Shown one piece after another: positions 3,001 to 6,000 of a stretch of DNA of 17,827 nt. Origin of the DNA: a virus (Duplodnaviria > Heunggongvirae > Uroviricota > Caudoviricetes); IMG/VR virus record IMGVR_UViG_2778261533_000006, positions 1 through 17,827 of that record; one strand, 5' to 3'. The position numbers were made by a program. Numbering within the stretch: the first letter of the stretch is position 1; each line of letters begins with the position of its first letter.

Positions 3001-6000
3001 TATTACAAACAGCGATATCAGTTCTTAAAGACAACCAAAATTTAAATGGTAAAATGTAATATAATAAACTTACTTTTTTATCATTTTTCCACTTTAACAA
3101 CATTTTGCTCCACTTTTCCACGACCAAACAACTTGAAATCTGGTTAAAATAACACGCAACACTATTCTTCTTCCTTGAGTCCGCCCGGAACTCGAAAAAC
3201 AAACCGAGTTAAAGCCATTTTTCACAAAATCGATTTTGGGTCTCACCAAAATTACGGGGTTGCATACGCATTCGTTTATTTTCGAACGTGTACATACAAA
3301 TATGCACAAAAATAATCATAATTATTTTCTGAGATGCATTATGATATGAACACCAATTTCGTATAGAGTCTCACTATGTCTCAAATTTTTGCTTACTGTC
3401 GGATATCAACGCTGGATCAGACCACCGAAAATCAACGCCGGGAAATCGAAAGTGCAGGTTTTAAAATCAAACCTCAGCAAATAATCGAAGAACACATTAG
3501 CGGCTCAGCAGCAACCAGTGAGCGTCCTGGTTTTAACCGGTTGCTTGCTCGCCTGAAATGTGGTGATCAATTGATTGTGACAAAACTGGATCGCCTTGGT
3601 TGTAATGCAATGGATATCAGGAAAACAGTGGAACAACTGACCGAAACAGGTATCAGAGTGCATTGCTTAGCATTGGGGGGCATTGACCTGACCAGTCCAA
3701 CAGGAAAAATGATGATGCAAGTAATTTCAGCAGTCGCTGAATTTGAACGAGACCTTTTACTTGAACGCACTCATTCCGGGATAGTAAGAGCCCGCGGCGC
3801 AGGGAAACGTTTTGGTCGACCACCTGTGTTAAATGAAGAACAGAAACAGGCGGTATTCGAACGAATTAAGTCAGGTGTAAGTATAAGTGCCATTGCCCGG
3901 GAATTCAAAACCTCGCGGCAAACCATTTTAAGAGCCAAAGCAAAACTTCAGACACCTGACATATAAAAAATAATCTCGGTGTGAGATGCTTTACGTCTTC
4001 CAAGCCCCCTTCCTTGCCGTAAATGGAAAGATACATCTAATTATAGAATTTATATGTTTTACCCTACGGCAGTGCTGGCCATTCAATATCCTGTGCAGTT
4101 GACGTATCAACACGGTTCAGCAATACCCGATACTTTTTCCATGCTTCCAGCAACGAGATTTCTTCCTCCGTTGCAATTTCCAGATCTGCAGCATCCTGAA
4201 GCGGCGCAATATGCTCACTGGCTACCTGCATCAGGTTGTTTTTTGTTTCTTCCGCCTCCCGGATCCGGAACAGTTTTTCTGCTTCCGTATCCTTCACCCA
4301 GGCTGTGCCGTTCCACTTCTGAAACTCCCCTTCCGGCGATAACCAGGTAACATTTTTCGGTAACGGACCGAGTTCAGAAATAAATAACGCGTCGCCGGAA
4401 GCCACGTCATAAACCGTTTTACCCCGATGATCTTCAACGAGATGCCACGATGCCTCATCACTGTTGAAAACAGCCACAAAGCCAGCAGGAATATCTGGTG
4501 GTGCAATATCGGTACTGTTTGCTGGCAGACCTGTATGAGGCGGAATATATGCGTCACCTTCACCAATAAATTCATTAGTTCCGGCCAGCAGATTATAAAT
4601 TTTTATGGTCCGTGGTTGTTCACTCATTCTGAATGCCATTATGCAAGCCTCACAATATAGTTAAATGCGATGTTTTTGACGGTGTTTTCCGCGTTACCAG
4701 CAGCGTTAACGGTGATGGTGTGTCCATGTGAACCAATCGCAACGGAGTGCGTATGAGCACCAATACCGACAGTATGCGCGTGTGCACCTGCAGATGCTGC
4801 TGTGCCGGACAGTGAATGGCTATGATTACCATCTGTACTGGTATTCGCTAACCACCCCGTAGACATACCTACTGAGCCTTGTACACCCGTTGTTAACTTA
4901 TCCATGGATTTCATAACCCCACCTCGCAGACAAAGCGGGTGTAAATTGAGGGAATACAACGTATCGCAAAAAAGCAGAAACGTAACAGACTCGGAGTCAG
5001 TGAATAACTCAGGTATTGGGTTATCAGCTAATATCGAGACTCAAAAAATGGAAAAACCCGCTCGACGGCGGGTTTAAGCTGTGTGACGAAGTAACCACTC
5101 TTAACAGCATAACCAATTTTTTACGTACGTAAACCACAAAATGATATTTGCGAGAATGCTACCGAGTATTGAAAACACCACTACAAATACATAAGCAAAT
5201 CTCAACAAATAACCAACAAATAATTTCCAGTGTTATTTTTAGCCGATTTAAATTGAACCTTCAAATTACAGAGCACTTATAAATAACAGCCGTTAATATA
5301 AATTGGCTAATAGATTTATTTTTATTCAGCCAAGATCCATGAATAGGATTCGATAGAAAAAAGTTCAGATAAAAATAGAGATCTACTTCACAAATCAAAC
5401 GAGAAACCAAAACTTACATCTTGAAATAATCACATTGATTAGATGAATATTTATCGCGCAGTGACATCATTTTTTAATAATAGTTCAAAAAAAAGGGCTC
5501 ACGATGAAAAAATTAACAGTGGCAATTTCTGCTGTAGCTGCATCAGTACTGATGGCGATGTCTGCTCAGGCAGCTGAAATTTATAATAAAGACAGTAACA
5601 AGCTGGATCTATATGGGAAAGTTAATGCCAAGCACTACTTCTCCTCTAATGATGCAGATGATGGTGATACTACTTATGCCCGTCTTGGCTTCAAAGGTGA
5701 AACCCAAATCAACGATCAACTGACTGGTTTCGGTCAGTGGGAATATGAATTCAAAGGCAACCGCGCTGAATCTCAAGGCTCCTCCAAAGACAAAACCCGT
5801 CTTGCATTTGCAGGCCTGAAATTCGGGGACTACGGCTCAATCGATTACGGCCGTAACTACGGTGTAGCATATGACATCGGTGCGTGGACTGACGTTCTGC
5901 CAGAATTCGGTGGCGATACCTGGACCCAAACAGATGTGTTCATGACTGGTCGCACCACTGGTGTTGCAACTTATCGTAACAACGACTTCTTTGGTCTGGT

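Follow-up and report, generated by a model that had tools for sequence, protein, structure and literature searches.

Organisation of the locus

The window, by which is meant the whole stretch of 17,827 nucleotides of IMG/VR virus record IMGVR_UViG_2778261533_000006 that was analysed, carries on its minus strand the reading frame 4639..4959, which comprises 106 amino acids if counted from a mechanical TTG start and 91 if counted from the in-frame ATG at 4914, as an earlier note on this DNA had it. The stop codon of this frame (TAA, 4641..4639) overlaps the ATG of tfa (4639..4637) in the sequence TAATG, again in agreement with that note. The features referred to below, in the order of their coordinates, are these:

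3376..3966, plus strand: pin, serine invertase gene, convergent with tfa
4064..4639, minus strand: tfa, intact gene for a tail fibre assembly chaperone of 191 aa, with its own GAGG 8 nt upstream
4639..4882, minus strand: stf-derived segment, the last ~80 codons of a 1132-aa side tail fibre of the StfR/StfQ type
4639..4914, minus strand: chimeric ORF essD'::'stf, 91 aa from the ATG at 4914..4912
4720..4824, minus strand: four GxHxH motifs (HSH, HAH, HTH, HGH), the last four of the seven in the parent fibre
4883..4888, minus strand: deletion junction GGGTGT, a 6-bp microhomology common to essD codons 9-11 and stf codons ~1050-1051
4889..5503, minus strand: essD-derived segment, codons 1-9 of a phage-21-type holin and the whole nmpC-essD intergenic/regulatory region
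4905..4903, minus strand: Met4, a second in-frame start, giving a product of 88 aa
4918..4939, minus strand: predicted 9-bp hairpin sequestering the Shine-Dalgarno (SD) sequence (CCCGCUUUG / CGAGGUGGG), inherited unchanged from essD
4920..4925, minus strand: essD SD sequence GAGGTG, 5 nt before the ATG at 4914 and unchanged in intact essD loci
5044..5075, minus strand (that of the ORF): terminator-like hairpin and T-run, ~130 nt upstream of the ORF start, part of the essD leader
6775..7158, minus strand: quuD, Q-type late antiterminator gene, upstream of the ORF on the same strand and annotated in the identical PSS-07 locus

The two genes downstream of the ORF are well preserved. The product of tfa matches Pfam Caudo_TAP (E=7e-43), bears the accession WP_000885602.1, as in intact prophages, and is identical to K-12 TfaQ at 189 of 191 positions, while that of pin (Pfam Resolvase and HTH_7) is identical to K-12 PinQ throughout (196/196). 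The order and orientation, ynfT/ynaM - ydfK - pin -> <- tfa <- stf remnant, are those of StfQ-TfaQ-PinQ (b1547-b1545) in the Qin prophage of K-12, in which StfQ is likewise a 3' remnant, virion genes having been deleted from within that prophage, and shares its final 59 residues with the ORF without a mismatch. At 320 aa, however, StfQ still has the tip, the collar and the full set of seven HxH motifs, and it abuts the packaging gene nohA, its upstream neighbour in another frame, whereas here some 80 fibre residues are joined in frame to a holin start. Current annotations of the ORF disagree with each other, and both overlook the start that came from the holin. Gene callers label the frame, at 91 aa, a 'phage tail fibre repeat protein', whereas PGAP confines its annotation to the part that came from the fibre and classes this as a pseudogene 'missing N-terminus'.

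The fibre-derived part

The stf-derived segment agrees at every position with the 3' end of stf genes of full length (100% identity); its first ~64 nt correspond to the variable tail of the tip subdomain and the remainder to the conserved descending stem and C-terminal collar strand. The conserved 11-residue fibre terminus is present at the C-terminal end of the ORF, which also scores over the cut-off for the Pfam Phage_fiber repeat and matches the T4 gp37 tip structure 2XGF with E=7e-25 (52/69 residues identical, 75%), over gp37 residues 958-1026 only. Tail-fibre PHROG profiles are matched solely at their extreme C-terminal ends, for example at positions 723-794 of 794 in phrog_295. As judged from these alignments, the homology to fibres is far beyond chance, and the matches bear out the description of the fragment in the earlier note as a fibre C-terminal remnant with a conserved terminus and no shaft.

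How much of a tip this remnant represents can be read from gp37 (domains D10/D11), which has four HxH motifs in its descending strand and the same 11-residue end as the ORF. The HxH histidines of gp37 coordinate seven iron atoms along the needle, each site being formed by the same motif from three chains, for example three H929, and residues 958-1026 are the descending stem and the last strand of the collar (PMC6957217). The parent Stf likewise has seven HxH motifs, of which those at positions 975, 1007 and 1021 are lost and those at 1072, 1086, 1095 and 1104 are kept, the fusion joint lying at Stf residue ~1050, inside the tip segment between HxH motifs (Stf 1024-1071). In the 91-aa product the four units read G-N-HSH, G-A-HAH, G-A-HTH and G-S-HGH, with the HxH at residues 31-33, 45-47, 54-56 and 63-65; the four GxHxH units claimed previously do therefore exist, and are periodic, but at spacings of 14, 9 and 9 residues they are not strictly tandem. 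A complete needle stem requires gp37 882-931 as well as 960-1009, and compared with gp37 the ORF lacks the ascending stem (882-931), most of the tip (932-959) and the main collar, the equivalent of which (811-881) has been deleted together with the shaft (Stf 1-~950). Measured against the parent, the label 'tip domain' overstates what is left, namely some 80 C-terminal residues out of 1132: a fibre C-terminus has been retained, a tip has not.

For the same reason the peptide most likely does not fold, since it holds only the descending strand of a six-stranded, iron-stapled needle, without the ascending strand, most of the tip, the collar or the shaft, and that the product would form a fibre tip is very unlikely. 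The AF2 model of the 91-aa product, which contains one chain only, has a mean pLDDT of 44.5 and a pTM of 0.16, values too low for it to speak for or against a fold. A metal-stapled trimer of descending strands alone is conceivable as a putative structure, because each gp37 iron site uses the same motif of three chains.

The essD-derived start and leader

Upstream of the joint the sequence is that of a holin gene. The segment 4889..5503 is 100% identical to the region upstream of essD in many genomes with annotated essD, and the leader is identical over its whole length to the essD leader of strain STEC1588; identity to the DLP12 prophage of K-12 is 96.3%, with an initiation region that is the same from -46 to +31. 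In the 91-aa product residues 1-11 are identical to EssD residues 1-11, and residues 12-91 are Stf 1053-1132. The fusion shares with the phage 21 S holin/EssD (PF04971) the SD sequence, the leader and codons 1-11 including Met1-Lys-Ser-Met4, and the dual-start motif of the phage 21 holin gives rise to S21-71 and S21-68 (PMC9636201). It lacks, however, both transmembrane domains and the C-terminal tail of EssD: the maximum KD19 hydropathy is 0.65, as against 1.72 for EssD, and in the Pfam search no match to PF04971 ('Bacteriophage P21 holin S') was found in the fusion product, whereas the parental EssD matches at E=2e-35. The fusion product cannot be a holin or an antiholin.

The GAGGTG before the ATG, to which the earlier note had drawn attention, thus belongs to a genuine initiation region, identical in intact essD loci. 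The SD hairpin is a prediction only, its helix turning up in both the MFE and the centroid fold, whether of the fusion mRNA or of that of the parental essD; the z-scores of the mRNA fold around the start (-1.0 and -1.25) are not significant and the hairpin is descriptive only. The terminator-like hairpin and T-run likewise sit in the stretch over which the window and intact essD loci are 100% identical. K-12 transcribes and regulates its DLP12 lysis operon, control by Q, RpoE and Hha having been reported for the essD promoter region (PMC7918800). The placement of the promoter rests on this K-12 literature, because the sigma-E motif GAACTT-N15-17-TCNNA does not occur in the window and a sigma-70 scan of the ORF's strand between nmpC and the ORF gave no candidate. 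In an Rfam scan the sole match was IS009, inside tfa, and the region ahead of the ORF gave no known leader or riboswitch. In the same leader a hydrophobic 35-aa ORF (5101-5208, minus strand) was considered as a small gene and dropped because it contains an internal stop in K-12.

The deletion junction

The two parts of the ORF were placed by a three-way alignment with the intact prophage L003 of strain STEC1588, which occupies the same chromosomal site. On the stf side, positions 1-4888 of the window correspond to L003 908-5795 with 99.98% identity, and on the essD side positions 4883-7905 correspond to L003 30914-33936 with 99.8% identity, while the 25,124 bp between them in L003, from essD through stf and including the lysis, packaging, head and tail genes, are absent at the joint, where a single copy of GGGTGT remains. 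In agreement with this, megablast identity to full-length stf genes stops at 4888 and that to essD loci starts at 4883. The locus therefore bears the marks of a deletion scar, which are collinear flanks, missing intervening genes and one copy of a short direct repeat. The former crossover point, which the earlier note had proposed to find by alignment to the Rac StfR and e14 StfE C-termini, lies at 4883..4888 in the alignment with STEC1588. The SD sequence is not a stretch of ancestral stf coding sequence, as refutation on the terms of the earlier note would require, the stf of the full-length parent being unrelated to the window upstream of 4888. What does not survive is the notion of a 'retained' stand-alone gene: the ORF is a chimera, and its start, its SD and everything upstream came from essD by way of the deletion.

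The junction is rare. Among 5,426 complete E. coli genomes a single one has it, and public collections contain the 91-aa protein, unchanged, on 23 contigs; of the junction itself at least 24 contigs from NCBI, ENA and Logan assemblies were read (the index lists 52 blocks), always in the same context, and in 8 of 8 cases for which the context was shown this is the DLP12 site. We take the junction to be most probably one inherited event in a single small lineage. Prophage repeats are often mis-assembled, and with the junction in only one complete genome a mis-join of two prophage regions might be considered; such an artefact has next to no likelihood, however, given that the identical junction and protein recur in independent assemblies, among them a closed 4.75-Mb chromosome, and that the 6-bp microhomology is clean and its flanks perfectly collinear. 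Z0117EC0133, the second genome to cover at least 80% of the locus, proved to lack this junction and to have been rearranged independently, with IS5 and a macro-domain gene present.

Is the fragment an invertible cassette?

A stand-alone fibre end next to tfa and pin also recalls the alternative, Sv'-type C-terminal cassettes of Pin-invertible segments, such as Mu G, P1 C and e14 P, which are promoterless by design and are joined to the constant part of the fibre after inversion. A Pin invertase gene does lie ~670 bp away, and e14 of K-12 has just such a stfE/tfaE cassette beside pinE, the stfE pseudogene being likewise a stand-alone C-terminal piece with the same terminus. StfE, however, is an inversion cassette at the 5' end of pinE, lacks the HxH motifs and is only ~30% identical outside the last 10 residues, whereas the ORF described here does not belong to an invertible segment. 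A search across the window found no inverted repeats bracketing the fragment and no gix/hix-type AAACCNNGGTTT core near it, the hits being at or below chance; there is a single tfa, and no opposing or second cassette was found. Moreover, pin is convergent with tfa, as in Qin and Rac, and does not, as it does in e14, adjoin the 5' end of the fragment, the same sequence forms the contiguous end of a 1132-aa stf in the intact relative, and the 5' boundary is essD sequence. These findings effectively refute an invertible cassette, the probability of which we regard as negligible.

Probable origin by prophage decay

Very probably, then, the ORF is a scar of ordinary prophage decay, a chimeric essD'::'stf pseudogene left by a deletion, and not a preserved fibre-tip gene. 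The starting point was a lambdoid prophage of E. coli at the DLP12 site with its late region in the order quuD - (nmpC, antisense) - essD rrrD rzpD - packaging - head - tail - stf - tfa, with pin convergent. Illegitimate recombination between two GGGTGT copies removed the 25,124 bp and, with essD and stf running in the same direction, left a joint that is in frame by chance, combining 11 holin and 80 fibre residues. The holin SD, the SD hairpin and the Met1/Met4 dual start now precede a reading frame ending at the original stf stop. On firing of the essD promoter region, ribosomes would start at the holin initiation region and produce a soluble peptide of 91 or 88 aa; termination at TAATG might permit re-initiation on tfa, and Tfa would then be the sole late protein that the operon still yields in intact form. 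The event would have stripped the prophage of its lysis and virion genes and locked it in place, the ORF being an unselected by-product. Transcription and translation of the product are plausible, given that K-12 transcribes the essD position (PMC7918800) and that the leader is 96% identical, and coupling into tfa is possible.

The in-frame joint and the perfect preservation of tfa and pin could hint at selection, and form a counterpoint to the reading as a scar. An in-frame joint is expected by chance in one case in three; all carriers are near-identical, and selection is not measurable for that reason.

Possible functions of the fragment

Should the ORF nevertheless be a functional stand-alone fibre-tip protein, expressed and folded with Tfa and serving, for example, as a receptor-binding or decoy module, one would point to the genuine and strong initiation region ahead of it, at a position transcribed in K-12, to the intact tfa that overlaps its stop, and to four HxH of the metal-binding type in a sequence 75% identical to the gp37 C-terminus. 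That initiation region, however, was borrowed from essD by the deletion and did not evolve for the ORF, and the ORF has neither the ascending stem with its three HxH nor the collar, and lacks about the first half of the tip subdomain, whereas gp37 cannot do without its tip residues or the histidines that bind iron (PMC6957217). With the fusion confined to one small lineage, and PGAP treating it as a pseudogene, we consider such a function very improbable.

The earlier note had also suggested that the fragment might serve as a recombination reservoir. On this account, the remnant, tfa and pin would persist as a source of fibre-end and chaperone sequence for infecting lambdoid phages. Many genomes have a full-length stf that matches the 250-bp fibre part at 100% identity, and 1,142 cover at least 80% of it; the tfa and pin flanks are identical too, the last ~150 nt are conserved among lambdoid, T-even, P2-like and Felix-like phages, and at least one sequenced phage, PhiR34_1, has the fibre part. 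The same, however, would be true of any prophage remnant, and neither the ORF, nor the SD, nor an in-frame joint is needed for it; coverage of 80% or more of the fragment is reached in only 10 of 50,697 phage records, phage matches to the fibre part mostly starting at query nt 65-117, and its retention bears no sign of selection. Furthermore, most of the specificity-determining tip is gone, and a crossover inside the fragment would move little beyond tfa. What the locus has on offer is mainly a conserved 3' joint and tfa, and not receptor specificity, and persistence for this purpose appears unlikely.

A last option concerns tfa itself. As a translated leader, the fusion might have handed control of tfa, by way of TAATG, to the strong dual start of the holin and to an essD promoter that responds to stress and Q, such that the host would make Tfa, and perhaps a Tfa-trimerised, histidine-rich, metal-binding peptide, under envelope stress. 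This we regard as a distant prospect; if true, superinfecting phages might be affected in the assembly of their fibres, or the host in its handling of metals.

Significance

The locus is a cautionary and fully resolved case, in which a textbook SD sequence, a conserved domain end and an overlap with an intact neighbour all accompany what is yet a chimera from a single 25-kb deletion; unless the peptide or a re-wired tfa is functional, no new biology is implied. It also marks a lineage without the DLP12 lysis cassette, which in K-12 has been linked to biofilm and vesicle phenotypes. Finally, the locus informs the order of steps in the decay of DLP12-type prophages, in which lysis and virion genes were probably lost first and the ybcN-ninE-ybcO deletion came later. 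A second microhomology deletion, 3 kb off in the same prophage, fits such general decay.

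Tail-fibre homology of the reading frame

The window is a lambdoid prophage at the DLP12 site, with the gene order appY, ybcY (methyltransferase), ynaM, ydfK, pin, tfa, the reading frame considered here, an nmpC-type porin gene, quuD, ylcG, rusA, ybcM, ybcL, ybcK, replication genes and intD. Genes for lysis, packaging, head and tail are absent from the interval between the porin gene and tfa. The features are:

3376-3966, plus strand: pin, intact
4064-4639, minus strand: tfa (tail fibre assembly chaperone gene), intact
4639-4959, minus strand: the reading frame from a mechanical TTG start, 106 aa
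4914, minus strand: ATG start of the same frame, giving 91 aa
4925-4920, minus strand: Shine-Dalgarno sequence GAGGTG, 5 nt before this ATG
4641-4639, minus strand: its TAA stop, overlapping the tfa ATG (4639-4637) as TAATG
5044-5075, minus strand: terminator-like hairpin within the inherited essD leader
5504-6586, plus strand: nmpC-type porin gene, intact, 360 aa (Porin_1, E=3e-153)

The earlier note had described the frame correctly: the Shine-Dalgarno sequence, the ATG, the TAATG overlap, four GxHxH units (GNHSH, GAHAH, GAHTH and GSHGH) and the terminus ([11 protein letters not shown]) were all located. Homology to a tail-fibre end, as judged by sequence comparison, is strong, the T4 gp37 tip structure (2XGF) matching with 52/69 identical residues (E=7e-25), Pfam Phage_fiber exceeding its threshold and PHROG tail-fibre profiles matching only through their extreme C-termini. 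One further profile of unknown function, phrog_36248 (82 positions), matches residues 14-91 (window 4639-4875, E=6e-48), and thus short stand-alone calls of this fibre end also occur in phage genome annotations.

A deletion joining holin start to fibre end

On megablast of 3300-5550, complete identity to many full-length stfR-type side-tail-fibre genes ends at 4888, while on megablast of 4860-5510 complete identity begins at 4883, the matching loci bearing the annotation 'essD: phage lysis protein EssD | porin'. Both flanks lie within a single intact prophage of strain STEC1588 at the same chromosomal site, in the order ompT-appY ... pin, tfa, stfR (1132 aa), lom, J ... terminase, nohD, rzpD, rrrD, essD, porin, quuD, to which the window aligns at 99.98% over 1-4888 and at 99.8% over 4883-7905. 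In the three-way alignment identity extends on the essD side down to 4883 and on the stf side up to 4888, so that the joint overlap is GGGTGT (minus strand); relative to STEC1588 the loss amounts to 25,124 bp. The product consists of EssD residues 1-11 ([11 protein letters not shown]), the same in K-12 EssD, followed by Stf residues 1053-1132. EssD itself matches PF04971 'Bacteriophage P21 holin S' (E=2e-35); the fusion protein lacks both a holin match and any hydrophobic segment. These alignments show the frame to be an in-frame chimera of holin start and fibre end, produced by ordinary prophage decay; since an in-frame joint has a one-in-three chance, selection is not needed as an explanation. 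In the PGAP annotation the part that comes from the fibre gene is a pseudogene 'missing N-terminus'.

An Sv'-type cassette of an invertible segment was considered and rejected: neither inverted repeats nor crossover cores were found, tfa is present only once, the orientation of pin is Qin/Rac-like, not e14-like, and stf is contiguous in the intact relative. The closest analogue of this remnant is the stfQ-tfaQ-pinQ remnant of K-12 Qin. The right end ynaM-ydfK-pin-tfa (window 3376-4639) is essentially identical to that of K-12 Qin (PinQ 196/196, TfaQ 189/191 identical), so the same module occurs in prophages at different chromosomal sites. Rfam RF02111 (IS009, candidate sRNA) scores 220.9 bits at 4098-4296 (minus strand), wholly within the 3' half of tfa, and this match coincides with conserved tfa coding DNA. 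The porin gene, intact here although nmpC of K-12 is split by IS5, lies antisense between quuD and the site of the lost lysis cassette.

What remains of the fibre

HxH motifs occur seven times in the parent Stf (at 975, 1007 and 1021, then at 1072, 1086, 1095 and 1104), which mirrors the row of seven iron atoms in the needle of gp37 (PMC6957217). According to the same paper the collar of gp37 comprises residues 811-881 and 1010-1026 and the stem 882-931 and 960-1009, with the tip subdomain between. The frame aligns to gp37 958-1026 only, which covers the descending strand of the stem and the last strand of the collar; of the parent's variable tip segment about 20 residues survive. Lost are the ascending strand, which bears three HxH sites, the tip's first half, the collar and some 1,000 residues of shaft. 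Within the fibre part of 250 nt, most phage genome matches begin between nt 65 and 117, so its first 64 nt or so are variable and the remainder is a widely shared 3' joint (77.6% DNA identity to T4 gene 37), in agreement with the stem/tip split.

The suggestion that a stand-alone tip domain had been retained is thus partly supported: the frame is what is left of a fibre gene and its initiation region is real, but it is not the tip domain. Because half of the six-stranded needle is missing, the peptide most likely does not fold, and given these structural losses a functional tip acting with its chaperone is unlikely. A single-chain AF2 model (pLDDT 44.5) was uninformative. A recombination reservoir, also proposed, is true only trivially, as it would be of any remnant of a prophage: what the fragment supplies is the conserved joint and tfa, not receptor specificity.

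An initiation region inherited from essD

The identity on the essD side, together with the EssD N-terminus, identifies the Shine-Dalgarno sequence and in-frame ATG as the genuine initiation region of the holin gene. They are not conserved coding sequence of the ancestral stf, since the parental stf is unrelated upstream of 4888. The start carries Met1-Lys-Ser-Met4, described as the dual-start motif of S21 (PMC9636201), and a predicted hairpin covering the Shine-Dalgarno sequence is, descriptively, identical in parent and fusion. The essD leader is 96.3% identical to that of K-12. Directly before its terminator-like hairpin ends a TTG-started, very hydrophobic 35-aa frame (5101-5208, minus strand), which is probably no gene, since in K-12 a stop codon interrupts it.

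PMC7918800 reports that the DLP12 S-R-Rz operon is transcribed in K-12, with control by RpoE, Hha and a Q-type antiterminator (it cites Rueggeberg et al. 2013, 2015; Garcia-Contreras 2008). Transcripts of the essD region might then run on into the chimera, ribosomes starting at Met1 or Met4 would yield a soluble 91- or 88-aa peptide, and after termination at TAATG they could re-initiate on tfa, which also has a GAGG of its own 8 nt before its start.

Distribution and further decay

The junction occurs in 1 of 5,426 complete E. coli genomes (PSS-07); one other genome covers at least 80% of the locus, with a different rearrangement involving IS5. The exact 91-aa protein was listed for 23 contigs and in 52 index blocks, and the DLP12-site arrangement was identical in all eight contexts displayed. 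Such rarity and uniform context indicate a single event inherited in a small lineage and not a recurrent one; an assembly artefact is excluded, several independent assemblies carrying the junction.

Another strain shows independent decay at the same site (L004, NZ_CP098183.1, positions 4351-5913 of L004): a macro-domain gene directly upstream of tfa replaces stf, and next come a truncated gene for the IS5 transposase and the porin gene. In one carrier of the fusion (L009, GCA_050474305.1, positions 8272-12276 of L009), ynaM is directly followed by Usp, porin and PFOR/ydbK-type genes, a Rac-type neighbourhood, and the right flank is without methyltransferase, appY and ompT, which suggests a chromosomal rearrangement joining paralogous pin-ydfK/ynaE prophage ends, or else mis-assembly.

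A second scar was found:

7902-7905, minus strand: 441-bp in-frame deletion at the 4-bp microhomology GATA
7794-8207, minus strand: resulting ybcN-ybcO fusion frame, 137 aa

Here ybcN codons 1 to about 102 are fused to the C-terminal part of ybcO, with loss of ninE. Most but not all carriers of the essD-stf junction share this scar: among the compared loci it is present in L001 and L006-L012 and absent from L005, which keeps the junction; by this distribution the second deletion is the later of the two.
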